From: Arenicellales bacterium
Lineage (GTDB): Bacteria; Pseudomonadota; Gammaproteobacteria; Arenicellales; JAJDZL01
Direction of reading: 5' to 3'
Assembly: GCA_965200545.1 (NCBI GenBank)
Contig: CBDAUJ010000003.1
Location: 398,504-462,503 of the forward strand
Length of the DNA stretch: 64,000 nt
The first letter of the stretch is position 1. Each line of letters begins with the position of its first letter. Shown piece by piece: positions 26,053 to 51,904 of this stretch. The position numbers and the translations under genes are program-made. The notes below the pieces were generated by a model that made no database searches, had not been told where the DNA came from, and saw only the letters and a program-made list of their open reading frames with translations.

Positions 26053-26757
26053 TCATAAGAAAACCGCCAAATGGTCCAAGACGATAACCGCCCCAAATAT
26101 CATTGTCACTCCGCCTACAGCGGTATTCATGAGGCGCTGCCAAGATTTGCGTTTGCCTAAAGCGCCAGCCGGCACCGCTGCCGCCGCCGAGAGTATCGCC
26201 ATTCCCGCGATCGACCCGAATCCGAACAGCGCAATGTAAATGATGCCGAGCAGAGTCGATTGAACCGTTTGCAGAGCGAGCAGAATCAGAGCTGCAGAAC
26301 CGGAGAGCCCGTGAACAATCCCGACCAGCAAGCTCCGCAGCGGAATTTCATTCAAATGGACGTGATCATGCCGCTCATGCTTTGAATCGTGCTGTCGCTC
26401 ATGTGCATGCCAATGAATGTGATTGATGCCGGTGGCATGTTTGTGAACGTGGATGTGAAAATGATTCTTCCTGGCGCGGCGAAAAACATCAATGCCAAGA
26501 ATGAGCAGCATCACACCGACACTCAGTTCTAGAAAGTCGGCCGCGCCATGGGGAATCAGCGTATCGGCACTCAAGACAATCACGCCAACCAGCAGAAGTG
26601 TAATTGAATGTCCGACTCCCCAGACAACACCGTGCATAATGGCTTGCGAGCGGTTTGAATTGGCGCTGACTGCCAGTACAGCCAGCACATGATCCGCTTC
26701 AAGCGCATGTCTGAAGCCCATCAGAATGCCCATGAGCAAAATACTGAGATACATCAC
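26053..26757 (-). CDS. UreH / NiCoT-related nickel (cobalt) permease
   Basis: NiCoT-type signature RHALEADHV in the first TM region, GVGHSITLLL, and a long His-rich loop HFHIHVHKHATGINHIHWHAHERQHDSKHERHDHVH. About 6 TM. Sits at the end of the urease cluster. Confidence 0.65.
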   Translation of the reverse strand: MMYLSILLMGILMGFRHALEADHVLAVLAVSANSNRSQAIMHGVVWGVGHSITLLLVGVIVLSADTLIPHGAADFLELSVGVMLLILGIDVFRRARKNHFHIHVHKHATGINHIHWHAHERQHDSKHERHDHVHLNEIPLRSLLVGIVHGLSGSAALILLALQTVQSTLLGIIYIALFGFGSIAGMAILSAAAAVPAGALGKRKSWQRLMNTAVGGVTMIFGAVIVLDHLAVFL

Positions 26758-26897
26758 TTCAAACTTGTCATGAACGCAATCGATATCCGCATATCATTTT
26801 GATCACTGCGGAATTGAAATGATTCGATGGCTGAATCAATCTCCGCATGGGGCTTCAGTGTCCGAAAGAACAGCTGCTTGGGATTGTGCTGCAAAGC

Positions 26898-27458
26898 TCA
26901 TAGCTTGATCAGCGGCAGAATCTTCCGAAATTCGGGCGTATCGCCGCGGGTCATCCATTCAAAAAGAACCATTTCGGTGGACACAACACCGATGCCCTCT
27001 TCCCGCATGCGCGAGAGAGCCGTCTCTTTGTCGACATCGTTGCGAGATCCTGTGGCATCCACTGCAACATAGGGTAGAAAACCGCAATCAAGCAGTTCCA
27101 GCGAAGTTTGCATCACGCATACATGAGTTTCGGTGCCAGTAACGATCACTCGGTCGCGATCAATTGCATTCATCAGATCATAGAACGGCTGCTCTTGCAT
27201 CGCAGAAAAATTAATTTTGCCAAAAACCGCCGCTGACTCAGCAAGACTGCTCAGTTCTTTGACTGTGGGTCCAAGACCCTTGACATAGTGCTCAGTAAAA
27301 ACAATGGGAACATCAAGAATTGCGGCTGCCCGCATCAGTCTCGACACATTCGCAACGATGTCCTCGATTCCGGCGATTGCAGGAGCCAGCTTTTCCTGCA
27401 TGTCAACAATCAGCAGAACCGTATTTTCGGCTGTATTCAATGGAGTTGATTCAGTCAT
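26898..27458 (-). CDS. Isochorismatase-family (cysteine hydrolase) protein
   Basis: LLIVDMQEK (catalytic Asp), FGKINFSA (Lys), THVCVMQT (Cys); 186 aa. Confidence 0.85.
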   Translation of the reverse strand: MTESTPLNTAENTVLLIVDMQEKLAPAIAGIEDIVANVSRLMRAAAILDVPIVFTEHYVKGLGPTVKELSSLAESAAVFGKINFSAMQEQPFYDLMNAIDRDRVIVTGTETHVCVMQTSLELLDCGFLPYVAVDATGSRNDVDKETALSRMREEGIGVVSTEMVLFEWMTRGDTPEFRKILPLIKL

Positions 27459-27541: not shown

Positions 27542-28387
27542 TTATTTCCTTCGAAGCTGAGGCTCAGTGCCCAATTGAAGTTGTCTTACTTGTTTCCAGA
27601 GTGCGACTGCAGTGCGCTGAGCCGTCGCGCAATCATGCGCCAGAACACGCACCGAAATACCACAATGATTCGGCAATTTTGACACCCCTGCAAAGATTTG
27701 CCTGTCATTATTGACAATATTTCTAATTCCGCAGAACAGTCTATCGTCATGGCAGGCAGTTGTGAGAACCAAAAAGTTGCAGTGGACCGCATGCGGTCCC
27801 TGCATGCCAATGGCCTGGCGCTTGAAGTCTGCGCCATACAGCTCAAAGTGATCGACAAATAATGTCACTCCGTCATGCGATTTCGCTTGAATCGTACTTT
27901 GCAGTTTGCGAAACGGCTCGCCGGCCGATCCGGGGTCATGCATCAGAAATGAATCATAGACCAAGACACAGGCTTTCCTCCCAAGTATCACCTCGACACA
28001 CGATTCGATCTCGGCTTCTGGAAACAAAATCAGCGGATCGGGCAGATACTCAAAACGCGATTCAGTCTCAGCGATAATTTTGATTCGCTGCCGGCTTCGT
28101 CCTTCGCGCATGCGGTGGACAACGGTTGAGGCCTGCGTCGTAACCTGGGCGCGGGCCGCAGACTCAATCACAAAGCGGTTTTCCAATCGATCATCAGCAA
28201 AAATACCCCCGGCACAGGATTGCAGGTATACAGTTGCGATGTCCGGCTGGTCTGGATCCAGGTACTGCGCGCGGCACAAATGGAACGGATATCGGCAAAA
28301 TTGCTGTCTCAAAAAAGTGCAATCCTGACTCTCCCGCGAAAATACCAGTGACAGCTGCGCTTGACTTGATGTCTTGGGAACTGACAT
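27542..28387 (-). CDS. ureD: Urease accessory protein UreD
   Basis: UreD-like length and sequence (YLQSCAGGIFADDRL). Immediately downstream of ureG. Confidence 0.85.
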   Translation of the reverse strand: MSVPKTSSQAQLSLVFSRESQDCTFLRQQFCRYPFHLCRAQYLDPDQPDIATVYLQSCAGGIFADDRLENRFVIESAARAQVTTQASTVVHRMREGRSRQRIKIIAETESRFEYLPDPLILFPEAEIESCVEVILGRKACVLVYDSFLMHDPGSAGEPFRKLQSTIQAKSHDGVTLFVDHFELYGADFKRQAIGMQGPHAVHCNFLVLTTACHDDRLFCGIRNIVNNDRQIFAGVSKLPNHCGISVRVLAHDCATAQRTAVALWKQVRQLQLGTEPQLRRK

Positions 28388-28416
28388 GCCTTCGATTGGA
28401 GTATCAATGGCCTCAC

Positions 28417-29043
28417 TCAGGCAAACAGGACATCGCGCAGCAGCTGCTCTACAACGAGATCGATGCCTTCGCCATTTGCACAGTTGGTCAGCAAAACCGG
28501 CTTGCTGCTGCGAACCTCCAGCCCTTCTTTGACCATTCGATCGACATCAGATCCAACGTAACCGGCAAGATCGGTTTTGTTGATGATCAGCAGATCGGAT
28601 CGAATCACGCCCAGTCCTTTCTTGCGCGGTATATCGTCGCCGCCAGCCGTGTCGATGACAAACATCCAGTAGTCCACCAAATCCAGGGAAAACGAGGATG
28701 CGAGGTTATCGCCACCGCTTTCGATCAAGATTGCCGACAGATTCGGATGCGCCAGCGCCAGGCGATCAGCTGCTTGGATATTGAGTGTGGGATCCTCACG
28801 AATAGCGGTATGCGGGCAAGCGCCGGTCTCCACCGCCGATACTTTATTCTCAGCAATAATGCCGCTGCGCTTCAAACGCTCTGCATCCTCTCTCGTCACC
28901 AGGTCATTGGTCACCACGGCGACCTCCCGGTCTTGCGCCTGCAAAGCTGGAATCAGCCGCTCAATCAGCGCAGTTTTCCCCGACCCGACCGGCCCGCCAA
29001 TGCCAATTCGCGCGGGGGCCGGCAATGAGAACTCGTCACTCAT
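28417..29043 (-). CDS. ureG: Urease accessory GTPase UreG
   Basis: P-loop [15 protein letters not shown] and ESGGDNL motif. Confidence 0.95.
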
Positions 29044-29045
29044 GC

Positions 29046-30758
29046 TCAGCGAAGCATATAGCGTTGTGCCAGTGGAAGTCTCTGGACCGGCTCGCAGGTC
29101 GCCAGACTGCCATTTACAAACACCTCAAACGTCTGCGGATCGACTGTGATTGCAGGACAATTCGAATTGCGCAGCATATCGGCCTTGGTCAAGGTGCGCG
29201 TGCTGCCGGTCGGCAGCAGTGTTTTGTTTAGATCAAGTGAAGATTGGATGCCAGCCTGAATCGCCCGCTGATTGACAAAGCAGGCGCTCAGCGCTTGCTT
29301 CGCTTTTCCGAATGCACCCCACTGCGGGCGCATTCGCAGCGGCTCGCACGTCATCAGTGATGCAGCGCTGTCGCCCATTGCGCCCCAGACAATAAACCCG
29401 CCCTTGATAACAATCTCCGGCTTGATGCCAAAGAATCCAGGTTTCCACAGCACGACATCGGCCAGTTTGCCCGGTTCCAAGGAGCCGATATGCGCGTCAA
29501 TGCCAAAAGTGCGTGCCGCATTGATTGTATATTTCGCGATAAATCGCTTGATTCTCTCATTGTCTCCAATGCGAGTCGTTTCTTCATCCAGCCGGCCGCG
29601 CTGATCTTTCATCTTGGATGCGAGTTGCCACGTGCGGCATATGACCTCATTGATGCGCCCCATTCCCTGGCTGTCGGAGCCGAGCATCGAAATCGCCCCC
29701 ATGTCGTGCAGTACATCTTCGGCGGCAATACTCTGGGCACGAATGCGACTTTCCGCGAAAGCCACATCTTCCGGTATCGATGGGCTGAGATGGTGGCACA
29801 CCATTGTCATATCCAGATGCTCATCGAATGTGTTGATCGTATACGGATTGGTGGGATTGGTCGATGACGGCAGACAGTTCGACTCGCCAGCAACCTTGAT
29901 GATATCGGGCGCATGCCCGCCGCCGGCGCCTTCGGTATGGTACATGTGGATGGTGCGCCCGCCAATGGCAGCCAGCGTGTCTTCCACAAAACCGCTTTCG
30001 TTGAGCGTGTCTGTATGAATCTGCACCTGGAAACCCAGATCATCTGCCACCCCGAGACAGGTATCGATGACTGCTGGCATCGAACCCCAGTCTTCGTGTA
30101 TTTTCAAGCCAACGCAACCGCCGTCAATCTGATCGTAAATAGAATGCGGCTTAGATGTGTTGCCGCGCCCGAGAAAACCGAAGTTGATCGGCCAGTGCTC
30201 GGCCGCCTGCAGCATTTTTCCGACATTCCAGGCGCCGCCGCAGTCGATCCCGACAGTAATAGGACCCAGCGAGCCGCCGATCATCGTCGTAATGCCAGAG
30301 CTGATTGCATGCTCGCAAAGCTGCGCACTGTCGAAATGAACATGCACGTCGATGCCGCCCGGCGTGGCGATCAAGCCTTCGGCATCACGCACTGTTGTGG
30401 CAACGCCGACGACTAGATTCGGGTTGACCCTGTCCATTGTGGCGGGGTTGCCCGCCTTGCCGATGGCAACAATTTTCCCCGCCTTGATCCCGATATCGCC
30501 TTTCACTATCCCGACGACCGGATCAATGACAGTTGCATTGCAAAGCAGCATATCAAGCGATCCCATGGCGCTGTCATACCCTGGCATCATGCCGAGGCCA
30601 TCGCGCAGCGTCTTGCCGCCGCCATGCAGGCATTCATCCCCATGGTACGCAAAATCATGCTCCACCTCCGCGAGCAGCGAGGTATCGCCGAGACGCAAGG
30701 CATCGCCCGCGGTCGGGCCGTACATATGCGCATAGTCGCTTCGAGTCATCGTCGCCAT
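29046..30758 (-). CDS. ureC: Urease subunit alpha
   Basis: [16 protein letters not shown] and MVCHHL motifs. Start set to ATG 30758 (GGAG 8 nt upstream, 2 nt after the ureAB stop) rather than track start 30770. Confidence 0.97.
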
Positions 30759-30760
30759 AA

Positions 30761-31456
30761 TCAACTCCATCCAAATTGCTGTTTTTTGGCACGCTCTAAG
30801 GCGCGCGCTTTCACCGATGCGTCATCTACGCAGCCATCGGTCAGTCCGTTCAGGCCATGCAGCTCGCGCGTGCCGCCGAATTCGGTCAAGGCCACAGCTT
30901 TGCTGGCGCCGGGCTCAAAACGAACCGATGTGCCGGCCGGAATGTCAAGATGCATGCCGAACGCGGCCTCGCGGTCAAACTCAAGCGCCTTGTTGACTTC
31001 GAAAAAATGATAGTGACTGCCAATTTGAACCGGGCGATCGCCGGTATTGAGAACGGTTACAGAAGATTTGCGCCGGCCGACATTGGTTTCAATGTCCCCA
31101 TCGTCTGCAAGCAGTTCGCCTGGCGACACCTCGCTTGCAATTTTTTGCCTGCCTGGTCGGATCGGGTCGTGCACCGTCACCAGCTTGGTGCCGTCTGGAA
31201 ACGAGCATTCAACTTGAATCATGGGAAGCAAATCGGCCACGCCAGACATCACATCATCAGAAGTCAGAATCGTCGAGCCGTAGGAGATCAGTTCTGCGAC
31301 AGAGCGTCCGTCGCGGGCGCCCTCAAGAATCTCATCGCAAATATAGGCCACGGTCTCTGGGTGATTCAATTTCAGACCTCGACTTTTGCGCTTGCGAGCC
31401 AATTCGGCCGCCGTAAAGATCGTCAGTCTCTCGATTTCTGTCGGTGTCAGCAACAT
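30761..31456 (-). CDS. ureAB: Fused urease gamma-beta subunit (UreA-UreB fusion)
   Basis: N-terminal ~100 aa is UreA ([34 protein letters not shown]...). C-terminal ~120 aa is UreB (...[26 protein letters not shown]...). Single 231-aa ORF. Confidence 0.9.
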
Positions 31457-31505
31457 TGCAGATTCCTCGGTTTATCTAGATCCATTCGATGTGCGATCAC
31501 TCGCT

Positions 31506-32192
31506 TCAATTTGCAAACAGCCGTGATTCCTGCGCCTCGTGGCGCATCATGGCAATTTCGATCTGCGGAGTGAATGTGCCGATCCGATCGACACAGACCG
31601 CTTCTTCGCTCAGCAGTTTCTCAATAATGCGACGCTGCTCACCGATGATTCTCTGTGCATCAATATGGCCAATGATACCCAGACGCAGCGCCGCACTGGT
31701 CAGCTGCGTGCGCAGCTGATGGGCCGCCATCAATTCTGCCTGGCTTCGCTGCATTCCAAGAGCCCGCCAGACTGTGCCTTGGGCAACAGCGTTGTGGCCA
31801 TGCGCCTCGCCCGCCAGCACCCGCTTGCGGAACTGCTTTGCCGCAATACTGCCTAGTCGGGCATGCAAAGTCAGCAATGCCGCGCCGGCCCGCTTGGAGC
31901 ATTCACGGGACTCGAGGCTGAGCGAGCGGGCTTCGACTATCGCGTCCAAAGCACACACCTTGCCGCCGCCAAACTCCGTACGCCAGCAGGCAGCAATGAC
32001 TGGCCGATCTGTATAGTTCCAGCGCCATTGCAGCTGACTGGCAACAAAATCACAAACCTGATCAGCGGTTGTGACTGCACCGTCCGCTGCCAGTGTCTCA
32101 AGCCCCCAAGAAAATGACTGGGTACCGCCCGGGAAAAAACTGTCGCCATGCTGCAGAGCGAGCAGGAGATCAGAATTCAGCGAGCCCGTCAT
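31506..32192 (-). CDS. ureF: Urease accessory protein UreF
   Basis: UreF-like helical protein, 228 aa, between ureE and ureAB. 4-nt overlap with ureE. Confidence 0.85.
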   Translation of the reverse strand: MTGSLNSDLLLALQHGDSFFPGGTQSFSWGLETLAADGAVTTADQVCDFVASQLQWRWNYTDRPVIAACWRTEFGGGKVCALDAIVEARSLSLESRECSKRAGAALLTLHARLGSIAAKQFRKRVLAGEAHGHNAVAQGTVWRALGMQRSQAELMAAHQLRTQLTSAALRLGIIGHIDAQRIIGEQRRIIEKLLSEEAVCVDRIGTFTPQIEIAMMRHEAQESRLFAN

Positions 32193-32638
32193 GCAACTTC
32201 GAACACTCGCTCGTCATCAAGAAACGGCTGCAAGCGCTCAATATAGCCCTGCCGAGGTCCCTCTTGCGCAATCAGCAGACAGTCATCTTCGAAACGCACG
32301 CGCCAGTGCAGATTGCCGGCAAAGTATCCAAGCTCAAGCGCAGCGGCGGCGTTTTCCGCCCGACAGCGTATCCAGATTTCTTCTTGCATCCGCACCACGA
32401 TGGCACGCTGCGGCTCAAGATCAAGGATCGCTCCGTTGACCAAATGCTGACTGCGAGGCAATGCGATCTGGCAGACCGTTCCGCAGTCAGTTGTGGCGCG
32501 CAAGCGATGGCGCTTCAAGTCCTCACGCTCCAGCACCAAGTATTCCACTTTGCCATCGTGCATATAATGGTGAATCTGATTGCGCAAATCCGGATCATCA
32601 ACAAACCCGAGTATGCCGGTAACGGTCAGACTGCTCAT
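32189..32638 (-). CDS. ureE: Urease accessory metallochaperone UreE (no His-rich tail)
   Basis: UreE-like size and the LGYFAGNLHW segment (counterpart of the GNRH motif). First gene of the ure cluster. Confidence 0.75.
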   Translation of the reverse strand: MSSLTVTGILGFVDDPDLRNQIHHYMHDGKVEYLVLEREDLKRHRLRATTDCGTVCQIALPRSQHLVNGAILDLEPQRAIVVRMQEEIWIRCRAENAAAALELGYFAGNLHWRVRFEDDCLLIAQEGPRQGYIERLQPFLDDERVFEVA

Positions 32639-32870
32639 TGCGCTTCAGAGACTTTGGAAGCGGCTTGCCCTGCACTGCCGGCCGCGGCGGTCGCAAGCCG
32701 AATCGATTCAGCGAAACTGTTTGCTCGACTCATCTGATGATCTGCGATCACTGGCCAGCTAGCTCCTGCTAGTCATAGCCGGCATTGAATGGACTCTCAA
32801 GGCATACCGCATCAAGCAAAACATTTTCCCTGCGGCATCGATTCTCTCCGCCGGCACTCTGGATTGGCGC

Positions 32871-33965
32871 TCAGCCGCCCAACGCTTCTTTGACCAGCTG
32901 GCAATCAGTCCCTCTATCGAATTCCGTCCGAGCGCTGATGTAGCCGAATTTTATCCACCAGTCGTTCGTCATTTCCCAATGATCTCTGAGCTGGCCATTG
33001 GTTTGCTCAAACGGAGGCGCGCCTTCCAGCACCCCGCAAAACCGGGCAGTGTCCTCGAGACTGTAGATGTACAACTCGCCTTTCGCGGGATCGTTTTTCG
33101 ATACATCCGTTGTATGCGATCCATCGCCCAGAATCGCCGCAACATCTTCCACTGAGAACCCGACCGCCTCTGCAATCACCTTGTTGGACTCTTCCGCATT
33201 GGCACGCCAATGCTCAACGCCTGCGTAGATGGCTTGCAAGGCTCTGACAGCCAAATCGCGGCGATTCTCAAGAAAGTCATTCGACATATACATCGCATCA
33301 GACAGCAGCGCGGACTGAAGCCAGAAACTATTGAGGGAATGAGCGGCCAGCGTAGATCCCTCCAAGCCGTCCAGAACCTGTGTATTGAACGGAGACCACA
33401 GTGAAGCCGCGGCGACCTGGCCGCTGATCATCGCAGCCGCTGCATCCGCTGCTATGAGATTCACCATCTGCACGTCACCCACATCAATTCCATTTTGCTC
33501 CAGCAAGATACCCACCATAATGTGGGACAAGCCGCCTTCCAGCACCGCGATCTGCTTGCCTTTGAGCTCACTGATATCCTTAATGTCCGGGTGCAGAATA
33601 ATCATATCCGCTCCATGTGACAGATTAGACAGGTTGATCAGCTTGAAACCCATATCCTCAGCCGTAGCAATCGGACCAAACTCAATGGTGCTGAAGACAA
33701 TGTCAAGCTGATTGGTCGACAGCAGGCTGAACAGCTGAATCGGATCTTCAATGACGGTATTCTCGAATTTCAAATCCGTCAGCTCAAAGGCTTCCGCCAC
33801 ATACTGAAAGCCGTAGCCGGGCCAGCTGAAATGCCCGATCCGGACCGTATCCTGAGCAATGGCGCTGCCGGCGCCGAACCAAGACAGCGCGGCCAGCGAC
33901 AGTGCCGCCAGCGACATTTTCCCCCACCGGACGCATCGTTTCAGTTCTTGAATCTGCTTGTTCAT
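32871..33965 (-). CDS. NitT/TauT-family (NMT1/THI5-like) ABC transporter substrate-binding protein
   Basis: Signal peptide (AALSLAALSWFGAGSAIA). Periplasmic SBP following a cognate ATPase and permease. Confidence 0.8.
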   Translation of the reverse strand: MNKQIQELKRCVRWGKMSLAALSLAALSWFGAGSAIAQDTVRIGHFSWPGYGFQYVAEAFELTDLKFENTVIEDPIQLFSLLSTNQLDIVFSTIEFGPIATAEDMGFKLINLSNLSHGADMIILHPDIKDISELKGKQIAVLEGGLSHIMVGILLEQNGIDVGDVQMVNLIAADAAAAMISGQVAAASLWSPFNTQVLDGLEGSTLAAHSLNSFWLQSALLSDAMYMSNDFLENRRDLAVRALQAIYAGVEHWRANAEESNKVIAEAVGFSVEDVAAILGDGSHTTDVSKNDPAKGELYIYSLEDTARFCGVLEGAPPFEQTNGQLRDHWEMTNDWWIKFGYISARTEFDRGTDCQLVKEALGG

Positions 33966-34013
33966 AATCTAAGCCTCCTTAAAAATTTTAGGTCTTTTGA
34001 CAATCCGTGACAT

Positions 34014-34862: not shown

Positions 34863-34867
34863 TCGGG

Positions 34868-41542: not shown

Positions 41543-41930
41543 GCTGGCGCTGTCCCGAAGTCTAGTCGAAATGGTGGACGACTACGCACTGCGTCACCGT
41601 GCAAGCCGAGTCAAGCAGATCAATCTTCGCCTGGGCGAGTTGTCCGCGATGACGAGAGCCCTGTATTTCTGCTTTGAATCCGTCTCCAAAGGCACCGTAT
41701 GCGAAGGCGCGACTCTTTCTATAGAGACTGTGCCCTTGACTGTCTACTGCAGTCACTGCGACGAGACCAAGAAGCCTTCGGGTCGCTACAGTTTTCGCTG
41801 CAGCGACTGCGGCATGCCCACACCCAAAGTCATCACTGGGCGCGAACTGCAGCTGGTCTCGATCGAACTGGCATCATCAGATCAGACATCAGTTGCGCTC
41901 GACACCCGCGAAACCGCCGCAACCGCATAA
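41535..41930 (+). CDS. hypA: HypA-like nickel metallochaperone
   Basis: Starts MHELAL (the MHE Ni-binding N-terminus). Zn motifs CSHC...CSDC. The ATG overlaps the hypB stop (ATGCATGA). Confidence 0.88.
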   Translation: MHELALSRSLVEMVDDYALRHRASRVKQINLRLGELSAMTRALYFCFESVSKGTVCEGATLSIETVPLTVYCSHCDETKKPSGRYSFRCSDCGMPTPKVITGRELQLVSIELASSDQTSVALDTRETAATA

Positions 41931-43093: not shown

Positions 43094-44137
43094 ATGAATC
43101 CTGCAAAAGCCTACTTGCATCTGTTTTCTCCGCTTGGCGGCGAAAACGCCGATAACTACCGTACGCCAGGCCAAATTTCATTTTTGCGCTCGAAGTTCAT
43201 GTCTTTGGATGACGCAGCCTTGGCGGAAACCGATGCGCCTTATGTGTTCATCGGCGTGCCGTTCGATGAAGGCAATGTGGGCAAACCCGGCAGCGAGGAC
43301 GGACCGCGCGAGTTTCGGGTTGCATCGCTGGATTATTTTCCGTTCTGGTTCGAGTTCAATGTCGATCTGCACGGCAGTGCCATCGACTGCGGCGATGTCT
43401 CGATGCCGAGAGTCAGTCCTGACGTTGCCCGCGAGCGCATCTACCGAGCGGTCAGCAAAGCGCTGGCCGCCGGCAAGACACCGATCATTTGCGGCGGCGA
43501 CCGATCGGTCTCGATACCCGCAGCCAAAGCTCTCTCAGATCATCTCGGTGCAGACCAGAAAATGGGCTATCTGCATCTGGGCGCCCATCTGGACATGGCA
43601 GACAGCTGGGCCGGCGAGCGCGAAGTCAGCACCTGTACCCTGGCGCGCATCACCGAGCTGAACAATCTCAGTATGGAGCACGTCGCGCATATCGGCGCCC
43701 GCAATTCATTCAATCCCAAAGACCATGTCGATCTCGCAAAATCCCGCAACATGCGTTTCTACCCCATGCATGAAGCCCTTGAGCGTGGCATCGATACCGT
43801 CATTGACGAAGCGGTCAGCCGCGTTTGGAACGGTACCGATGGCCAGTATCTGAGTTTCAACTTCAATGTTCTGGACTCTTCAGCCGCACCCGGCGTCACC
43901 GCCACTGAGCCTGGCGGATTGGAATCGCGCGAAATTATGCGTGTTGCCTCAAGTATCGCCAAACAGCAAGGTGTCAGCGTGATCGACGTGACCGAACTGT
44001 GCCCGATGTTTGATGTCAGCGGCTCCACTTCACGCACCGCCGTTTGTGTCGTGCTTCGAATCATGGCAGAGATTGCTCACCTGCGCGGGCAGACGCTGGA
44101 TGAATCGATTCGCCGCCCCGGCTGGCAATACAACTAA
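43094..44137 (+). CDS. Arginase-fold ureohydrolase-like protein, subunit type B (copy 2), degenerate metal ligands
   Basis: Co-linear with B1. GGDRS, LGAHLD (first Asp to Gly), SFNFN (both Asp to Asn). Trimmed to MNPAKAYLHLF by analogy with B1 (MNPVKNFEHLF). Confidence 0.8.
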   Translation: MNPAKAYLHLFSPLGGENADNYRTPGQISFLRSKFMSLDDAALAETDAPYVFIGVPFDEGNVGKPGSEDGPREFRVASLDYFPFWFEFNVDLHGSAIDCGDVSMPRVSPDVARERIYRAVSKALAAGKTPIICGGDRSVSIPAAKALSDHLGADQKMGYLHLGAHLDMADSWAGEREVSTCTLARITELNNLSMEHVAHIGARNSFNPKDHVDLAKSRNMRFYPMHEALERGIDTVIDEAVSRVWNGTDGQYLSFNFNVLDSSAAPGVTATEPGGLESREIMRVASSIAKQQGVSVIDVTELCPMFDVSGSTSRTAVCVVLRIMAEIAHLRGQTLDESIRRPGWQYN

Positions 44138-44175: not shown

Positions 44176-45255
44176 ATGAAATCAAGAAAGTCACATTCAT
44201 TGCGGACGCTGATGCAATGCGCTGCGACAGCGGTTGCTGTCGCACTTGGGGCCATGGTGACACAGGTATCGGCAGCTGATGCGCTCAATGTCCTGGTCTG
44301 GTGCGATCATGCCGATGAGAAACTGATCAAGCCGTTTGAAGACAAGCATAACGTAAAAGTCAATGTCAAAACCTATGAGGGCACTGGCACTGCACTGTCC
44401 ATCATTGAGCAGTCCGCTCCCGGCGACTGGGACGTGCTCGTGGTCGACGCGCCGGATGCACCGGTGGTCGCTGGCCTCGGACTACTTGCGCCGCTGAATG
44501 ATGCCGACCTGCCGCTTGATAATCTGTTCGATCCGCTGACCGCAGCCGGTTTCAATTATGTCGACGGGAATCGATACACAGTGCCGGAGAAATTCGGCTA
44601 CTACGGGGTGGTCTATAACAAAGACAAGGTTGATCCGGAAGACATGAAGTCCGCGCAAGTCATGTGGAATGACAAGTATGCGGGACGCATCGCAGTCTAC
44701 GATTACTACTTTCCGGCCATGCAGCTGATTGCCATCTCCATGGGCATCGCACCGGATGATATTACCATGGAGCACTTGCCTCAGATTCGTGAGAAACTGC
44801 TCGAAATGCGCTCGAATGTCAAAATGATCGGTGATATTGTGAGTGTGCAGAACGCGCTGGTCAATGGCGATGTGGACATTATCGTGAATGCTGCTGAATT
44901 TGCGGTCTCCAACCTCATGCCCTCGCTTCCGCATCTGGATTGGACTATTTTTGAGGAAGGCGGCCTGATCTGGATTCAAGGCCTGAGTATCATGAAAGAC
45001 TCAAAGCAAAAGGATTTAGCTCTGGAGTTCGTCAAGCATGTAATCAGCCCCGAGGGACAAAGCGCACTGGCAACTTCGGAATGCTACTGGGCGATGCCTG
45101 CCAATGCGACAACCGAACTGTCGGCAGACGAGAGAGCGATCCTGCGCTGGGATGAGCAATCCGGGTTCTTGGCGCGTTCAGTGCCATCGGCGATCAGTCA
45201 GCCGGATATCGATGCAGAAATGCTGGATATGTGGACTGAATTTTTGCAAAAATGA
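44176..45255 (+). CDS. PotD/PotF-like (family 1) ABC transporter substrate-binding protein
   Basis: AGGAGG Shine-Dalgarno, signal peptide ending VSAADA, polyamine-type SBP length and composition. Confidence 0.8.
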   Translation: MKSRKSHSLRTLMQCAATAVAVALGAMVTQVSAADALNVLVWCDHADEKLIKPFEDKHNVKVNVKTYEGTGTALSIIEQSAPGDWDVLVVDAPDAPVVAGLGLLAPLNDADLPLDNLFDPLTAAGFNYVDGNRYTVPEKFGYYGVVYNKDKVDPEDMKSAQVMWNDKYAGRIAVYDYYFPAMQLIAISMGIAPDDITMEHLPQIREKLLEMRSNVKMIGDIVSVQNALVNGDVDIIVNAAEFAVSNLMPSLPHLDWTIFEEGGLIWIQGLSIMKDSKQKDLALEFVKHVISPEGQSALATSECYWAMPANATTELSADERAILRWDEQSGFLARSVPSAISQPDIDAEMLDMWTEFLQK

Positions 45256-45386: not shown

Positions 45387-46247
45387 ATGGCGACGGCACA
45401 ACAAAAATCCCTTTTTGATTTAACGAAGTGGGCAATTCACCCGGCCTTTTGGTTCACGGTGATTTTTTTCGCTATACCGCTTGCAATCATGCTTGCCGTC
45501 AGTTTCTGGCAGCGCGTATACGGAAAACTAGCAGCGACTTGGGACTTGGCCAATTACGCAAAGTTTTTTGGCCGAGATTACCTCCTTGAATCACTGTTCA
45601 ATTCGATTGAAGTGACGGTTTTGTCGACTCTCATCAGTATTGTTCTTGCCTACCCTCTGGCCTACGCACTGGCCTATAAAGTTCCGCCACGCCTGCAGCG
45701 CCTGATACTGCTGCTGGCAGTGATGCCTTTTTGGACTGCATACGTGGTGCGCTCCTACAGCTGGCTGCTGGTGATTGCTGAAAATGGTGTCATCAACGTG
45801 ATTCTGACTGGTTTGGGGCTCGTTGAGCAACCGCTTGAAATGGCGTATAGCCGCGGTGCAACGGTGCTCGGGTTTGTTCACTTTTTCACCATGCTACTGA
45901 CCTTGACCATCTATGCGAATCTGGTTCAAATCAAGCCTTCCTACCGGAAAGCCGCCACCGACCTCGGCGCGAATTCGCTGCAGGCGTTTTTGCGCATCAC
46001 CTTGCCGCTCAGCATGCCCGGTGTAGCGGTGGGCGGCTTTATTTCGTTTGTAATTGCGATCGGCGATTACATTACTCCGCAGATTTTGGGCGGCGGCACG
46101 GAAGTTCTGGTGCCGCAGGCGATCATATTGCAAGTATCGCGCGCTGCCAACTTTCCGATGGCTTCAGTGATGAGCGTAACGCTGATGATTGTCGTGATTG
46201 TCGTCTACCTCATTTCAGCCAAGCACATGAAAATGGAGCGGGTGTAA
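45387..46247 (+). CDS. PotB-like ABC transporter permease
   Basis: Six-TM binding-protein-dependent permease with EAA-like loop (YRKAATDLGANSLQAFLRITLP). Confidence 0.85.
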   Translation: MATAQQKSLFDLTKWAIHPAFWFTVIFFAIPLAIMLAVSFWQRVYGKLAATWDLANYAKFFGRDYLLESLFNSIEVTVLSTLISIVLAYPLAYALAYKVPPRLQRLILLLAVMPFWTAYVVRSYSWLLVIAENGVINVILTGLGLVEQPLEMAYSRGATVLGFVHFFTMLLTLTIYANLVQIKPSYRKAATDLGANSLQAFLRITLPLSMPGVAVGGFISFVIAIGDYITPQILGGGTEVLVPQAIILQVSRAANFPMASVMSVTLMIVVIVVYLISAKHMKMERV

Positions 46248-47038
46248 TGCGACAGTGGCTGCGCAACATGCCGTTTTTCGGCTACATCGCGCTGGCTCTG
46301 GGGTTTATCTATCTCCCGGTTGTGGTACTGGTGATTTTTTCGTTTCAAGACGGACTGCTGCCCGTGCCGCCGTTCCATGGGCCCAGTCTGCAATGGTATG
46401 ACAAGATGCTCGAAAATGATCGTCTGGTCGACGCTTTGCTCAACTCCGTAGCTGTGGCTGTGCTATCGTCGGCAGCCACCACAGTGCTGGGATTTTTGGC
46501 CGCTTACGGAATGGTCAAGCGGCCGCCGCGCTGGATCGGCAGCATTCGGTTCGTATTGATGGCGCCGCTGACGGTGTCCTACCTGATTATTGGCATTGGC
46601 CTGCTGATCACATTGAACATCTTGGGAATACCAAAATCGCTGTTCGCTGTTGGCATCGGACACGCTGTGATCAATCTGCCGCTTTGCTTCGCAATCATTT
46701 ATTCTCAGTTCGGCGATCATATGAAGAACATTGATGCGGCGGCACGGGATCTCGGCGCAAGCGATTTTCAAACCATGATTCGAGTCATCGCGCCGATCAT
46801 GAAACCGTCTTTATTCGCTGCGTTTTGCCTTTCCGCAACACTGTCGTGGGATGAGTTTATCATTGCGTTTCTGCTGAGCCGTTTTGAAGTCACGCTGCCC
46901 GTAATAATTTTCGAGATGCTGCGGGCCGGATTGACGCCGGAGGTGAATGCGGCCGGCACTGTTGTATTCGCAATATCGTTCACGTTTGTGGCAATCGCAG
47001 CAAGCGTTATGTTTCTTAGCAACCGGAAAACACCATGA
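46247..47038 (+). CDS. PotC-like ABC transporter permease
   Basis: Start overlaps the previous stop. EAA-like loop (IDAAARDLGASDFQTMIRVIAP). Confidence 0.85.
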   Translation: MRQWLRNMPFFGYIALALGFIYLPVVVLVIFSFQDGLLPVPPFHGPSLQWYDKMLENDRLVDALLNSVAVAVLSSAATTVLGFLAAYGMVKRPPRWIGSIRFVLMAPLTVSYLIIGIGLLITLNILGIPKSLFAVGIGHAVINLPLCFAIIYSQFGDHMKNIDAAARDLGASDFQTMIRVIAPIMKPSLFAAFCLSATLSWDEFIIAFLLSRFEVTLPVIIFEMLRAGLTPEVNAAGTVVFAISFTFVAIAASVMFLSNRKTP

Positions 47039-48117
47039 GCCATGAACCGCTGGTGGTTTTAGATGGCGTGACCAAAACATTTGGTGAAGTCATCGCTGTT
47101 GATCGCGTGAGTCTGAATATTGAGCCGGGTGAATTTCTGGTTCTGCTCGGGCCATCAGGGAGCGGCAAGACAACCTTGCTTTCGATGCTCGGCGGATTCA
47201 TCACACCAACGGCCGGCAAGGTGCTGATCCGCGGCGAGGACGTTACGCACCTGCCCCCCGCGACGCGACCGACCGTCACAGTGTTTCAAGACTATGCGCT
47301 TTTCCCTCATATGAGCGTAAGTGACAACATCGGATTTGGCCTGGTGATGAGAAAAGTGCCGAAACGCGAGCGCCTGCGGCGCATATCGGCGGCACTCGAA
47401 AAAGTCGGCCTGACCGGCTTTGGCGCGCGCGGCGTTCACCAGCTCTCCGGCGGCCAGCGCCAGCGGGTTGCATTGGCGCGCGCAATCGCCGTGGAGCCGA
47501 CAGTCCTGCTGCTGGATGAGCCCCTCGGAGCACTGGATTTGAAAATTCGCCAGAAAATGCAAGCAGAGCTGGTGCATCTGCAAAAGAACCTCCATTCAAC
47601 ATTTGTCCATGTAACGCATGACCAGGATGAGGCCATGAGTATTGCAGATCATATTGCGCTGGTCAACCGTGGAAAAATTGAAGACTACGGTTCCCCAGAG
47701 CGAATCTACCTGCGTCCGGCCACTTTGTTCACGGCAAGATTCATGGGTGAAACGAATATCATTGAGGTGCAGCCGACGGCGGCCAGTGACGGCGAGAAGC
47801 TGATCGTTGACAGTCCGCTCGGCGAATTGACGCTGCCGCTTGCGAACTTGGACAGCAGCATACCCCACAATATTGCACTGCGGCCGGAGCAAATCAAATT
47901 AAGCGACGGAAACATCGCAGCCGGTCATCTGGCGCTGGGAGATGCCAAAGTGACTGAGGTCGTATTTCAAGGCACCCATCGGCTCTGTCGCGCGATAGGC
48001 GGCACGGCAATGGATACCGAACTGCTGATCAAGGTTGCGCCGGATCATCAGGTTGTGGCGGGCGATATGCTTGCTTTACAAGCGCGCAGAACCGATGTGA
48101 CGCTATTGTCGAAGTAA
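47035..48117 (+). CDS. PotA-like ABC transporter ATP-binding protein
   Basis: GPSGSGKTTLLSMLGG, LSGGQRQRVALARA, LLLDEPLGALD, plus a C-terminal TOBE-like region. Confidence 0.9.
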   Translation: MSHEPLVVLDGVTKTFGEVIAVDRVSLNIEPGEFLVLLGPSGSGKTTLLSMLGGFITPTAGKVLIRGEDVTHLPPATRPTVTVFQDYALFPHMSVSDNIGFGLVMRKVPKRERLRRISAALEKVGLTGFGARGVHQLSGGQRQRVALARAIAVEPTVLLLDEPLGALDLKIRQKMQAELVHLQKNLHSTFVHVTHDQDEAMSIADHIALVNRGKIEDYGSPERIYLRPATLFTARFMGETNIIEVQPTAASDGEKLIVDSPLGELTLPLANLDSSIPHNIALRPEQIKLSDGNIAAGHLALGDAKVTEVVFQGTHRLCRAIGGTAMDTELLIKVAPDHQVVAGDMLALQARRTDVTLLSK

Positions 48118-48296: not shown

Positions 48297-49190
48297 ATGC
48301 ATGACAGGCCAGTGCTCATGCCCAGCATTGTTGTCTCTGCCGGTGCGGCAATATGGGGTCTTTTCTGGATACCCGTCCGTCAGCTGGACAGCAACGGAAT
48401 TTCGGCCGCATGGACATCACTGATTGCGCTGGGATTGATTGGCATTGTGTTCGTGGTGCTGTTTGCGACTCGATATCTCAAAACGCGTCGAATTCCTTGG
48501 AATGTACTGCTGACCGGGTTAATTGGCGGCGGGTACTTCGTGCTGTATACCTGCGCGCTGATACTCACAGAAGTCGTCAAGGCGATCTTGCTGATTTACC
48601 TGGCTCCAATCTGGAGCATTATGCTCGGCAGATTTATGCTCAACGAGAAAATAACGACGTATCGCGTGATCGCAGTCTGCTGCGGCATTTCTGGCCTGGT
48701 CGTCGTGCTGGGCATTTCAGACGGCAATTTGCGATGGACCGAAGTCGGCGACTTGATGGCGCTTGTCGCCGGGTTTCTCTGGTCCTTCGCGGCAGTTCGA
48801 ATCAGGCAGCGTCCAGAAATTCCAGTGTGGGAGCAGGTCGGCGCCTTTCACATCGGCGGCGCGCTGATCGCAGCACTGTTCATTATCATGCCATTTCAAG
48901 GGCTGCAAAAAACACCCGCTTTGAACGCATTGGTCGATTCCGTCTTGTGGCTAGCAGTTTTTATGTTCTTTTTTGTCATAGCAGTTTATCTCGTTTGGTG
49001 GGGTACGCGAATTCTAAGTCCCACACGAGTCGGTTTGCTCTCGATGACAGAAGTGGCATTCGGAGTCGGTTCGGCTGCGATTTTAGCTGGAGAGCCGTTC
49101 GGCTGGGTGCAAGTTACTGGCGTAATTCTGATTCTGTCGGCGGCATTTATTGATGTGCTTGATCGATTTCCAAATTCAAGCTCCGCCTGA
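48297..49190 (+). CDS. EamA/DMT-superfamily transporter
   Basis: About 10 predicted TM helices in two similar halves, 297 aa. Confidence 0.75.
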   Translation: MHDRPVLMPSIVVSAGAAIWGLFWIPVRQLDSNGISAAWTSLIALGLIGIVFVVLFATRYLKTRRIPWNVLLTGLIGGGYFVLYTCALILTEVVKAILLIYLAPIWSIMLGRFMLNEKITTYRVIAVCCGISGLVVVLGISDGNLRWTEVGDLMALVAGFLWSFAAVRIRQRPEIPVWEQVGAFHIGGALIAALFIIMPFQGLQKTPALNALVDSVLWLAVFMFFFVIAVYLVWWGTRILSPTRVGLLSMTEVAFGVGSAAILAGEPFGWVQVTGVILILSAAFIDVLDRFPNSSSA

Positions 49191-49489
49191 TCGATGCGCA
49201 TCCCCAATTCGAAATTTGATCTCGCATGGCGGCCAATTCAGCCATTTTCATCCGTTCGTACTCAACTTGATGCCGCAGTCACTGCATACACTGGCAGCAA
49301 ACTCTTTTCCGCCCAGTTTAACGAAACAACAATAACGCACAAACATGAGGATACAAATCACACTGCATCCATTTTGGTTGAAGACGAGACAACCAGAAAA
49401 CTTTATTTTCGTCATGCATGTGATCAGTGGTGCAGTCCGGAATCACATCGCAAAATGCCGCGCGCAACTGCCAGCCTGATCGAATCCTT

Positions 49490-51904
49490 ATGAGATCGCA
49501 TGCGCGTGTGGTCATTGTCGGTGGTGGAATCGGCGGCGTCTCCACTTTGTACCATCTCACTCAAGAGGGCTGGTCAGATGCCGTACTGGTTGAGCGCGAT
49601 GAACTGACTTCTGGCTCCACTTGGCATGCCGCGGCTCAAGTCACGCAGTTTGGATCCAATCAGACCATGTGTGCGCTCAAGCGCCATTCAATCAATCTGT
49701 ATCGCGAGCTAGCAGCTGACTTGGAGTACCCGATCAACTATCACATCACAGGCGGAATGCGTCTAGCCTACACGCAAAATGACATAGACACCTATCGTCA
49801 CTTTATCGGCATGGCTGGCGGCATCGGGGTTGAGATGGAATTTATTGATCCGCAAGAAATATCAAGACGCCATCCGCTGATGAGGACGCATGATCTGCTC
49901 GGTGCGTGGTGGGATCCGCTTGACGGTGATATTGATCCGGCGCAACTGGTGTTTTCTTTGGCGCGACATGCCCGCAAGGCCGGTGCTGAGATCTGCCGAT
50001 TCAACGCCGCGCAGGCAATCACGAAAAAGTCCAATGGAGAATTCATTGTTCACACCCAAAAGGGCGATATCACCTGTGAGATCGTCGTCAATGCGGCTGG
50101 CTATCGTGTGCATGAGGTGGGGCACATGCTAGGGGTTGTCCATCCAGTGGTGTCGATGGAGCATCAGTATTTCCTGACGGAACCGATCACTGCCATTGAA
50201 GCACTGGACTTTCGCGTACCGATCATTCGCGACCGCAGCGACAGTTTCTACAGCCGGCAGGAAAAAACGGGTCTATTGGTCGGTGTCTATGAACACAATT
50301 GCAAACCGTTTGGAATGGATGGAATTGATCCCAAGTTCACCAAGTCACTGTGTCCATCCGACTTGGATCGGTGTTTGGACAATATGGCGGGCATATTCAA
50401 GCGTCTGCCGGCCCTGACTGATACTGGAATCCATACTGTCATAAATGGTCCCATAACTTACAGCGCTGACGGTGCGCCGCTCGTCGGTCCGATTCCGGGC
50501 ATCCGCAATGCCTACGCCTGCCTGGGTCTGCGGGCCGGCATCGGCGAAGGCGGTGGACTGGGCAAAGTGCTTGCTGAACTCATTGTCCATGGAGAATCCG
50601 AATGGGATGCGTGGCATCTTGATCCGCGGCGATTTTCTGCCTGGGTGACGGTCGAAGCAACCCGAGCGAAAGCGATTGAAGAGTATCAGCAGGAATTCGA
50701 TTACCATCTCCCCCATGAATACCGTGCAGCGGCACGCAATCTGTCGACAACGCCGCTTTATGCCGAACTGAGTCGACAACACTGTGCATGGGGCGTGGTC
50801 AACGGCTGGGAACGCGCATTGTTCTTCAAGCCTGATGCCAATTTCATTGACGAGCATTCATATCGGTTCACACCGACTTTCGACGTGGTTGCCGCAGAAG
50901 TCAATGGCATCAGCAATGGCGTTGGATTGATGGAGGTATCCGGATTCGGCCGATTCGAGATTCGAGGACCGGGGGCTGGGAATTTTCTGGATCGGCTGAC
51001 ATGCAGTGAATTACCGAAAAACACAGGCGCAGTCAAACTGTGCTACTTTCTCAATGAAAATGGTCATGTCCTGTCGGAGGCAACCGTGGCGAAATGCGGT
51101 GATGACTATTACTGGTATGGATGTGCTGCCGCGGCCGAATGGCATGACCGCGACTGGTTGCACTGGCATAAACCGACAGGGGTATCGGTTATCGAAAGAA
51201 TCACCAGCCATACAACACTAGTGATTGCTGGCCCCGATTCCCGAGCACTGCTTGCGTCGGCATGCACCGGAAACGACTGCTCCAACCAGACATTCAGGCC
51301 GATGCAGAATCAATCCATGACAATTGCGAATGCGCAAGTGATCGTGATGCGCGTCAGTTATTCGGGTGAACTAGCCTATGAGTTGCATGTGCCCAATACA
51401 CATTTGATTGAGGTGTATGAACAGTTGCGTGATGCGGGCCGTGCATTCAGACTTGTGCAGTTCGGCCTTTATGCCGCCGAGTCAATGCGTCTTGAAAAAG
51501 GCTATTTGCATTGGAAAGCCGACTTGGTATACGAGCACAACCCATTTGAGGCAGGACTGGAGCGTTTTGTCGTGATGGACAAGGAGAATTTCATCGGCCG
51601 CGAATCACTGGCAAAACAGAGGCGGCAAGGCAGTGCTCAACAACTGACAGCACTCACTGTTGATTGCGATCATGCCCCCGCCCACAGCGGTGATCCGATA
51701 TTCTTAAATGGCATTCAAGTCGGATCAGTTACGTCCGGCGGGTACGGGCACCGTGTGCAAAAGAACATTGCGTTTGCGTACATCGAAGCGGAGGCGGCAA
51801 AATACGGTGCACGAATTGAGGTCGGCATTCTCGGGCAGCGATATGCGGGGGCGGTGTCGCCGCGGTGTCTTTTCGACCGGAATAATCAGAGAGTCAGAAG
51901 CTAA
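49490..51904 (+). CDS. FAD-dependent oxidoreductase fused to GcvT-like folate-binding domain (sarcosine/dimethylglycine dehydrogenase-like)
   Basis: N-terminal VVIVGGGIGGVSTLYHL (DAO domain). C-terminal aminomethyltransferase-like region (EVSGFGRFEIRGPGAGNFLDRL, YSGELAYELHV). Trimmed to ATG 49490. Confidence 0.88.
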   Translation: MRSHARVVIVGGGIGGVSTLYHLTQEGWSDAVLVERDELTSGSTWHAAAQVTQFGSNQTMCALKRHSINLYRELAADLEYPINYHITGGMRLAYTQNDIDTYRHFIGMAGGIGVEMEFIDPQEISRRHPLMRTHDLLGAWWDPLDGDIDPAQLVFSLARHARKAGAEICRFNAAQAITKKSNGEFIVHTQKGDITCEIVVNAAGYRVHEVGHMLGVVHPVVSMEHQYFLTEPITAIEALDFRVPIIRDRSDSFYSRQEKTGLLVGVYEHNCKPFGMDGIDPKFTKSLCPSDLDRCLDNMAGIFKRLPALTDTGIHTVINGPITYSADGAPLVGPIPGIRNAYACLGLRAGIGEGGGLGKVLAELIVHGESEWDAWHLDPRRFSAWVTVEATRAKAIEEYQQEFDYHLPHEYRAAARNLSTTPLYAELSRQHCAWGVVNGWERALFFKPDANFIDEHSYRFTPTFDVVAAEVNGISNGVGLMEVSGFGRFEIRGPGAGNFLDRLTCSELPKNTGAVKLCYFLNENGHVLSEATVAKCGDDYYWYGCAAAAEWHDRDWLHWHKPTGVSVIERITSHTTLVIAGPDSRALLASACTGNDCSNQTFRPMQNQSMTIANAQVIVMRVSYSGELAYELHVPNTHLIEVYEQLRDAGRAFRLVQFGLYAAESMRLEKGYLHWKADLVYEHNPFEAGLERFVVMDKENFIGRESLAKQRRQGSAQQLTALTVDCDHAPAHSGDPIFLNGIQVGSVTSGGYGHRVQKNIAFAYIEAEAAKYGARIEVGILGQRYAGAVSPRCLFDRNNQRVRS

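Follow-up and report, generated by a model that had tools for sequence, protein, structure and literature searches.

Two putative heteromeric ureohydrolase pairs of the MefH/DmgH family alongside a urease gene cluster in the genome of an Arenicellales bacterium

The window considered here is a stretch of 64,000 nucleotides from an Arenicellales bacterium (assembly GCA_965200545.1, contig CBDAUJ010000003.1, positions 398,504 to 462,503 of the forward strand), and between its positions 26053 and 51904 arginase-family genes lie close to a urease gene cluster, two ATP-binding cassette (ABC) importers and a putative nickel permease (Table 1). Listing of the open reading frames (ORFs) together with Pfam scans recovered, in its place, every gene that an initial annotation had named in the two clusters of this region, and refined that inventory in that the four arginase-family genes make up two alpha/beta pairs, A1B1 and A2B2. 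In what follows A1B1 and the minus-strand block of urease, importer 1 and nickel permease genes are referred to as module 1, and the hypBA genes, A2B2 and importer 2 as module 2. The rest of the window holds housekeeping genes (ffh, dnaK/dnaJ/grpE, recN) and the region is therefore part of a chromosome; proteins identical to those of the window are present on one 557-kb NCBI/ENA contig. Taken as a whole the locus is best explained, with a probability that we would put at about 0.68, as a composite of two separately conserved operons of the MefH/DmgH family of ureohydrolases that would feed one urease, with the adjoining EamA transporter and DAO-GcvT flavoenzyme genes most likely being bystanders.

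Table 1. Genes and other features of the ureohydrolase-urease region, in window coordinates
Feature	Position	Strand	Basis or remark
NicO/UreH-like nickel permease (predicted), 234 amino acids	26053-26757	-	Transmembrane-like segments, motif, homologues
Isochorismatase-family (YcaC/MAR1-like) hydrolase	26898-27458	-	Pfam PF00857
ureD	27542-28387	-	Pfam UreD
ureG	28417-29043	-	Pfam cobW/HypB/UreG; syntenic with L001 ureG
ureC (urease alpha)	29046-30770	-	Pfam Urease_alpha + Amidohydro_1
Fused ureAB (gamma-beta)	30761-31456	-	Pfam Urease_gamma + Urease_beta in a single ORF
ureF	31506-32192	-	Pfam UreF
ureE	32189-32638	-	Pfam UreE_N
NitT/TauT (NMT1/SsuA)-type binding protein, importer 1	32871-33965	-	Pfam NMT1
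ABC ATPase, importer 1	34014-34862	-	Pfam ABC_tran
ABC permease, importer 1	34868-35752	-	Pfam BPD_transp_1
Truncated DDE_Tnp_1_4 transposase (insertion sequence remnant) at inversion junction	35971-37119	+	Pfam positions 136-416 of 435
A1, catalytic alpha subunit, DmgH-type nickel ureohydrolase (predicted)	37593-38660	+	PDB match, residues
B1, degenerate beta (scaffold) subunit	38712-39746	+	PDB match, residues
About 890 bp without recognisable gene, between remnant of module 1 and module 2	39750-40640		Short ORFs only
hypB (nickel GTPase chaperone, His-rich N-terminus)	40643-41542	+	Pfam cobW/HypB/UreG
hypA (nickel metallochaperone)	41529-41930	+	Pfam HypA
A2, catalytic alpha subunit, second distinct heteromeric ureohydrolase (predicted)	41959-43038	+	Pfam Arginase; ORF opens at 41893, likely ATG at 41959
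B2, degenerate beta subunit	43094-44137	+	Pfam Arginase; ORF opens at 43016, likely ATG at 43094
PotD-like binding protein, importer 2	44176-45255	+	Pfam SBP_bac_8/1/6; distant from PotD/PotF structures
Two permeases, importer 2	45387-46247 and 46247-47038	+	Pfam BPD_transp_1; syntenic in A2-type loci
ATPase, importer 2	47035-48117	+	Pfam ABC_tran + TOBE_2
EamA-family transporter	48297-49190	+	Pfam EamA
Dimethylglycine-dehydrogenase-like DAO-GcvT flavoenzyme, 825 amino acids	49427-51904	+	Pfam DAO + FAO_M + GCV_T + GCV_T_C; likely start about 49490

How the enzymes of this family act was established only in 2024, with isolates from wastewater (PMC11399263; PMC10927577). MefH/MfmAB and its precursor DmgH are nickel-dependent alpha2beta4 ureohydrolases that carry metal in the alpha subunit only and need HypA/HypB for their activation (PMC11399263; PMC10927577), and DmgH converts N,N-dimethylguanidine to urea and dimethylamine (Sinn et al. 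2024, PMC11399263). The A and B subunits encoded in the window are 58-70% identical to the subunits of metformin hydrolase, A1 matching subunit A in the PDB with E = 4e-167 and B1 matching subunit B with E = 2e-145. A1 shares 76.3% identity with the alpha subunit of the assayed Hyphomicrobium DmgH, which is more than the 69.9% between the two assayed DmgHs. The initial annotation had proposed that the A/B enzymes release urea and an amine from an N-substituted guanidine, and this closeness to assayed enzymes supports the proposal. Both A1 and A2 keep H158, D183, H185, D187, D276 and D278, together with N199/N200, an asparagine in place of the usual catalytic histidine, and E320/E321. The metal site reads R, G, H, Q, D, N in B1 and R, G, H, D, N, N in B2, so that each beta subunit has lost four of the six ligands, B2 with the pattern of the Hyphomicrobium DmgH beta subunit. 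In both pairs the genes stand in tandem and run in the same direction, and the identity between partners (37% for A1/B1, 32% for A2/B2) may be set beside a family criterion of ~33-37%.

For A1B1 a direct comparison is possible with the operon of Hyphomicrobium sp. SMAG_U6089 (L044 in the set of related loci described below), which has been synthesised and hydrolyses dimethylguanidine, not metformin (PMC11399263). This locus has the order ABC (permease-binding protein-ATPase)-hypB-hypA-A-B-ureE-F-AB-C-G-D-isochorismatase, and its gene set is that of module 1 of the window, the isochorismatase gene after ureD included; it also has hypBA beside the pair. A1B1 has no hypBA of its own, the hypB/hypA pair lying ~0.9 kb downstream on the same strand. 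The A1 sequence agrees with that of the L044 alpha subunit at every one of 18 positions compared, six of them metal ligands and 12 in the pocket, and these include Q81, C185, N200, C201, W232, the loop 289-291 (TTA) and E321. Published screening found DmgH and MefH to be inactive on guanidine, methylguanidine, creatine, creatinine, methylated arginines, arginine, homoarginine, guanidino-acids and taurocyamine, and both characterised DmgH branches, that of Hyphomicrobium (L044) and that of Aminobacter (L067), to hydrolyse dimethylguanidine (PMC11399263). Given the shared gene set, the identity, the 18 matching positions and this substrate screen, A1B1 is best read as a DmgH orthologue.

The signature associated with metformin is absent from A1 and A2, where the loop 288-290 (numbering of Sinn et al.) is TTA and TSC respectively; C184 is present in both. 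Identification of the pairs as an agmatinase, a creatinase analogue or a guanidine hydrolase was rejected, as only distant matches were obtained in the PDB and NCBIfam and substrate screens in the literature were negative; NCBIfam has no specific model for A or B, and all agmatinase and hutG matches remained under the cut-off. A search of plasmids matched only those carrying MefH, at 68% nucleotide identity, and the locus is therefore not a copy from a metformin plasmid.

A2B2 is a pair of a different kind. A1 and A2 are 65% identical and B1 and B2 58%, a distance as great as that of either pair from MefH, and A2 is 63-64% identical to the assayed DmgH and MefH. Its pocket is unlike that of assayed DmgH in carrying the changes Q81T, P191V, C201A, R206E, D209K and A291C and an insertion of four amino acids, and the same changes (R206E/M at the fourth of these positions) and the insertion are shared throughout a clade that was monophyletic in 100 of 100 bootstraps and occurs widely in marine metagenomes, those of TARA and further marine assemblies among them. 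In MfmA, Q81 and C201 are active-site residues whose substitution is deleterious, and residues 289-291 lie within 3.3-3.5 Å of the docked substrate (PMC10927577). An Oceanospirillaceae member of the clade stood in the published tree, not among the assayed enzymes (Sinn et al. 2024, PMC11399263), and the A2 clade is a subgroup of the MefH/DmgH family without an assayed member. Judged from these residues the substrate of A2B2 probably differs from that of A1B1 and would be a guanidino compound that is cationic, because the importer encoded with the pair is of the Pot type.

It could be argued instead that A1B1 and A2B2 are redundant N,N-dimethylguanidine isozymes differing in transporter, affinity or regulation, the second copy having been acquired horizontally with its own importer. 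Both alpha subunits do keep every catalytic residue, N199/N200 and E320/E321 among them, both characterised branches of the family hydrolyse dimethylguanidine, and A2 falls among those branches in a neighbour-joining tree. We nevertheless think redundancy unlikely, as the six pocket-region substitutions and the four-residue insertion are fixed across the A2 clade, two of the substituted positions are sites where MfmA mutants lost activity, and the transporter families are wholly different. Furthermore, an A1-like pair is kept beside an A2-like or Pot-type one in several unrelated genomes, namely L061 with L066 (a shared contig), L055 with L065 and L025 with L056 (in each case a shared metagenome-assembled genome, MAG), which argues for non-redundant roles.

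The first of these cases, contig JABJGO010000013.1 of a Rhodospirillales bin (39 kb; L066/L084 1-21071, and L061), holds an A2-type operon, a second alpha/beta pair from a basal clade and two single arginase-family genes of 332 and 403 amino acids, with a homologue of the window's nickel permease (43-46% identical) directly after the latter, and looks like an island of nickel ureohydrolases. Elsewhere in the A2 clade five marine operons (L088, L089, L092, L093 and L094; for example L093 10001-13000) have one alpha and two beta-like genes in the order A2-B-B' or B-A2-B', the beta-like genes being 68-71% identical to B2, a hint of heteromers in which the scaffold subunits are of two kinds.

That the two modules of the window are conserved separately is seen from their neighbourhoods in related genomes. 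Loci were gathered by a species-level scan (one genome each), which gave 80, and by a metagenome scan with A2 as the query, which gave 80 further; window proteins were placed on them by tblastn, and the counts are of loci that were not de-replicated. These 160 loci divide into 124 of A1/DmgH type and 36 of A2 type, and a total of 162 loci was used for the tblastx/blastn comparison. B adjoins A in all 55 fully flanked loci. The usual order in A1/DmgH-type loci is permease-binding protein-ATPase-hypB-hypA-A-B-ureE-F-AB-C-G-D, with hypA/B adjacent in 93 of 106, urease genes directly downstream in 35 of 73 and an NMT1-type binding protein upstream of hypBA-A-B in 41 of 78; potD is found downstream of B in none of 73. 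The 36 A2-type loci, all marine, have the invariable order hypB-hypA-A2-B2-potD-B-C-A, commonly followed by a TetR gene, and the corresponding counts are 24/24 for hypA/B, 0/18 for urease, 0/12 for the NMT1-type protein and 18/18 for potD. In a Pfam census of 64 genes flanking A2-type operons only TetR recurs (five members), and neither DAO nor GcvT is among the 25 most frequent families. The same gene sets thus recur in ~160 related loci, and their co-location in the window is not due to chance. The hypBA genes of the window are closer to those of A2-type loci (58-61% for hypB, 63-70% for hypA) than to those of Arenicellales A1 loci (49-57%, and 49-56% for hypB alone) and therefore belong to module 2. 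As the initial annotation had suggested, urea would be handed from the hydrolase to the urease, given how widely the linkage of the two is kept in A1/DmgH-type loci.

Two variations on these gene orders were seen. In three Arenicellales loci (L002, L003 and L009, ~5000-7500) a single arginase-family gene, 30% identical to A2, and an NMT1-like binding protein (24%) precede hypB-A1-B1; the former is possibly a guanidine hydrolase of the GdmH kind that uses the same chaperones. In five loci (L047, L048, L056, L124 and L146) that belong to the clade sister to Aminobacter DmgH/MefH and whose alpha subunit has the loop STS and S or A at position 185, potDBCA stands upstream of hypBA-A-B, so that Pot-type importers have joined the enzyme family in two gene orders.

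Comparison with the closest relative (L001, A1 93% identical) accounts for the layout of the window. The ABC-urease block (27799-35685) aligns with this locus in the reverse direction and A1B1 (37615-39704) in the forward direction, and in L001 itself all genes are on one strand in the order A1-B1-permease-ATPase-binding protein-ureE...ureD, with no hypBA adjoining the pair. The divergent layout exists because the segment with A1B1 has been turned round against the block of ABC and urease genes, and the two divergent clusters described initially are therefore a secondary arrangement of two operons: what had been taken for a single supercluster is a composite brought about by inversion and not one ancestral unit. 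The clusters had further been said to be separated only by an insertion sequence, and what stands at the junction is a lone truncated transposase ORF, lacking the first ~135 profile positions and with a GC content of 63% against ~52% in its surroundings, around which terminal inverted repeats were looked for and none found. The short ORFs between 39750 and 40640 gave no Pfam match, and this stretch contains no Rfam family and has no tblastx/blastn match among the 162 loci, the same comparison also giving none for the insertion sequence region and for the region after the DAO-GcvT gene. The stretch between B1 and hypB may be what is left, after decay, of a junction formed in the rearrangement.

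Such traces raise the question of whether the locus is a decaying mosaic, in which A1B1, orphaned by an inversion that an insertion sequence mediated and left with neither promoter nor chaperones, is no longer expressed and only the urease and module 2 work, with no joint role. The truncated transposase and the 890-bp gap flank A1B1, the pair is inverted relative to the ancestral operon and it has no hypBA of its own upstream. We would regard decay as highly improbable, however, given that A1 and B1 are both complete ORFs in which every functional residue is preserved, that the closest relative (L001) likewise lacks an adjacent hypBA and that in the window hypBA is within ~0.9 kb of the pair on the same strand.

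The minus-strand part of module 1 contains a complete urease gene cluster, comprising ureA, ureB and ureC (the first two fused) with ureD, ureE, ureF and ureG, and the block is collinear with that of L001. The binding protein of importer 1 gave sub-threshold matches to SsuA_fam and to TIGR03427, the latter a model for a binding protein of urea/guanidine-carboxylase operons. The 234-amino-acid protein at the end of the block has six transmembrane-like segments, a RHALEADH motif (HX4DH-like) and a long His-rich loop; the protein itself fell below the Pfam and NCBIfam thresholds, with a weak match to the RcnA subfamily only, and most of its homologues (45-53% identity) carry PF03824 NicO and bear names such as urease accessory protein, HoxN/HupN/NixA and RcnA. 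Because of the motif, the transmembrane features and these homologues its designation as a NiCoT/NicO (UreH-like) nickel permease is sound, transport of nickel being predicted; it is not of the HupE/UreJ type. The common need of both enzyme sets for nickel, as put forward in the initial annotation, is plausible, with HypA/HypB, UreDEFG and the NicO/UreH-like permease all present. The isochorismatase-family protein, whose top PDB matches are hydrolases of unknown function, has homologues after ureD in four loci (L037, L044, L120 and L121) and in an upstream position in three (L041, L045 and L147), and may process a side product.

Beyond importer 2 lie the EamA and DAO-GcvT genes, to which the initial annotation gave a part in the system: an N-methylated guanidino compound, such as one resembling creatine, would be imported and hydrolysed, the amine demethylated onto tetrahydrofolate by the DAO-GcvT enzyme and a by-product handled by EamA. 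The genes are adjacent and co-directional, the DAO-GcvT protein is of the dimethylglycine dehydrogenase (DMGDH)/sarcosine dehydrogenase type, its best PDB match being mammalian DMGDH (1e-156), and the dimethylamine released by DmgH is N-methylated. In addition, AsnC-hypBA-A1B1 of one related Arenicellales chromosome (L004) is directly preceded by EamA and a paralogue of DAO-GcvT, and Aminobacter DmgH loci have a GcvT-only gene after HupE. We nevertheless think it decidedly unlikely that the full pathway exists. A DAO-GcvT-like match anywhere in the locus was seen in 2 of 124 A1/DmgH-type loci, at 23-29% identity, and in 1 of 36 A2-type loci (L095, 25% identical, on the opposite strand ~10 kb upstream); all are distant paralogues, the only full-length one among the 160 loci being that of L004 (29% identical), with weak partial matches in L036, L095 and L136, and by a rough estimate such rare matches are to be expected where GcvT paralogues are abundant, as in marine proteobacteria. 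No EamA homologue stands beside any of the 36 A2-type loci, a TetR gene being usual at that position. In the genome of the closest relative (L001) the best DAO-GcvT homologue, 69% identical, lies at 44-62 kb in an unrelated context, ~700 kb away from A1B1 at 762-783 kb, and in the window potA, EamA and DAO-GcvT are spaced 180 and 237 bp apart. Creatine, creatinine, methylguanidine and methylated arginines are not substrates of the DmgH and MefH enzymes that have been assayed.

The DAO-GcvT protein has 7813 homologues with E <= 1e-100, of which the best 120 are 65-74% identical, one identical copy apart; it is probably an ordinary dimethylglycine dehydrogenase, by prediction from its homologues, and an unrelated neighbour. 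Action on dimethylamine is not known for any DAO-GcvT enzyme. Linkage of A/B pairs across genomes is seen with urease, in loci of A1/DmgH type, and not with DAO-GcvT. A related suggestion, that A2B2 with PotABCD acts on a new cationic and probably N-methylated guanidino compound of sponge or plankton, the amine then being demethylated onto tetrahydrofolate by the neighbouring DMGDH-like enzyme, is in our view a long shot; were it true, the locus would supply the natural role that the DmgH family still lacks, along with a new route of amine demethylation.

The two sets of loci with GcvT-domain genes are of some interest in their own right. In L004 (1955-8332) a 651-amino-acid gene with Oxidored_FMN and Pyr_redox_2 domains, which we take to be the domain pair of trimethylamine/dimethylamine dehydrogenases and dienoyl-CoA reductases, comes before EamA, the DAO-GcvT paralogue and AsnC-hypBA-A1B1, and after the pair (12457-18223) come soluble di-iron monooxygenase subunits, a triple RidA-domain protein and a polysaccharide deacetylase, then the ABC-urease block. 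In Aminobacter niigataensis DSM 7050 (L067, 11981-16172) DmgH is followed by HupE/UreJ, a GcvT-only gene of 377 amino acids, AmiC/AmiR-like regulators and a branched-chain-type ABC system, and the GcvT-only gene is kept across Aminobacter, Mesorhizobium and Pseudaminobacter loci (L067 and eight sisters).

If the locus is indeed two operons that feed one urease, nickel would enter through the NicO/UreH-like permease, the single hypBA pair would presumably load it into both alpha subunits and UreDEFG would load the urease. The NitT/TauT-type ABC system would import a small N-alkylated guanidine, N,N-dimethylguanidine being the sole known substrate of the clade, and A1B1 would hydrolyse this to urea and an amine, as has been shown for the enzymes of L044 and L067. 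Adjacent urease would then turn the urea into ammonia for nitrogen assimilation. A2B2 would hydrolyse a second substrate, taken up by the Pot-type system, and its urea would go to the same urease. Coupling of hydrolase and urease that serves growth on an N-substituted guanidine was published for DmgH in 2024 (PMC11399263).

A number of points weigh against this interpretation. Homology, residue conservation, gene order and the rearrangement are seen in the sequences themselves, while substrates, heteromer formation, nickel dependence and expression of the window genes are matters that we infer from relatives, and after the inversion A1B1 stands outside the urease operon and without its own hypBA, so that co-regulation is uncertain. 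No regulator gene was found within the cluster in Pfam scans and no riboswitch by Rfam, and a promoter/terminator scan gave counts not above those of shuffled sequence, with the promoter-like sites before A1 and hypB at chance level. The deep nodes of the bootstrapped neighbour-joining tree reach 48-53%, and A2 groups with the Aminobacter clade in 48 of 100 bootstraps; the deep branching of A1-type enzymes, Aminobacter DmgH and A2 is unsettled and a past dimethylguanidine specificity of the A2 clade cannot be read from it. The changes in the A2 pocket might leave specificity unaltered. GcvT-domain genes do occur near some A/B pairs, in L004 and the Aminobacter loci, which leaves room for a link to one-carbon transfer. 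Lastly, the natural source of N,N-dimethylguanidine, and hence the natural role of DmgH, is stated by the authors of that work to be unknown (PMC11399263).

As to the wider setting, the closest relatives of A1 (86-93% identity) are in Arenicellales or Candidatus Poriferihabitaceae MAGs from sponge metagenome projects, which makes it probable that the source organism is a sponge symbiont. Upstream of the cluster (16847-25882) are a Bmp/PnrA-type ABC transporter with two permeases, a polysaccharide-deacetylase-family gene and an ornithine cyclodeaminase/mu-crystallin gene. Downstream (52000-64000) lies DNA of low GC content (41-48%, the IS110 gene excepted) that encodes a transposase of the IS110 family (54603-55838), a restriction enzyme of the GmrSD type (58292-60394) and a large DNA methylase (61619-63976), and this is probably a defence island forming the boundary of the cluster. 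In an Rfam scan of the whole window, made with guanidine and other riboswitches in mind, no family attained its gathering score.

Operons that join DmgH to urease are a common feature of marine Alpha- and Gammaproteobacteria and of the Arenicellales genomes recovered from sponge metagenomes, and there is a second clade with an altered pocket and a Pot-type importer, several genomes keeping two different pairs. The locus described here suggests a nitrogen-scavenging route that feeds urease and leaves the known mechanism unchanged. It offers two enzymes and two binding proteins with which natural alkyl-guanidines might be sought, and points to sponge tissue and to deep and coastal seawater as habitats for such a search.

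Several known systems invite comparison. The classical ureohydrolases (agmatinase SpeB, guanidinobutyrase and guanidinopropionase) share with the window pairs the arginase fold and the release of urea, but are manganese-containing homo-oligomers that do not need HypAB, and they match A1 only with E = 1e-21 to 1e-26, the NCBIfam agmatinase model scoring 125 bits against a cut-off of 174. GdmH of Synechocystis (Sll1077; PDB 7ESR/7OI1) is, like the pairs, an arginase-family enzyme that yields urea and is found with HypA/HypB-like nickel chaperones and uptake systems, and nickel dependence would be common to both; unlike them it is homomeric, is encoded by a single gene, matches A1 only with E = 2e-43 and acts on free guanidine. 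Creatinase has a different fold from arginase-family enzymes. The route by way of creatinase and sarcosine oxidase/dehydrogenase resembles the pathway first proposed for the window in that urea and an N-methyl amine are formed and demethylation is folate-linked, whereas DmgH and MefH are inactive on creatine and the DAO-GcvT gene is not a conserved neighbour.

Closer to the window are the enzymes of the family itself. MefH/MfmAB/MetCaCb (PDB 8RYI, 8SNF, 8X3G) belongs to the same family and fold as the window pairs, presumably with the same alpha2beta4 assembly, and HypAB-dependent nickel loading may be counted as common to both; it differs in having the signature N288-S289-A290, in releasing guanylurea rather than urea and in being carried on wastewater plasmids, flanked by Tn3 and insertion sequence elements. 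With the DmgH loci of Hyphomicrobium SMAG_U6089 and Aminobacter niigataensis DSM 7050 the window has in common the tandem alpha/beta genes, an intact di-metal site in alpha and a degenerate beta, hypBA and urease, and with that of Hyphomicrobium also the ABC importer and the isochorismatase. The nickel permease of the window is NicO/UreH-like whilst Aminobacter and Pseudomonas have HupE/UreJ, inversion has taken A1B1 out of the urease operon, where it is without its own hypBA, and a second, divergent pair is present. Module 1 is no new kind of system but a further DmgH-urease system from another lineage and habitat, its host being a gammaproteobacterium with Arenicellales relatives from sponge metagenomes.

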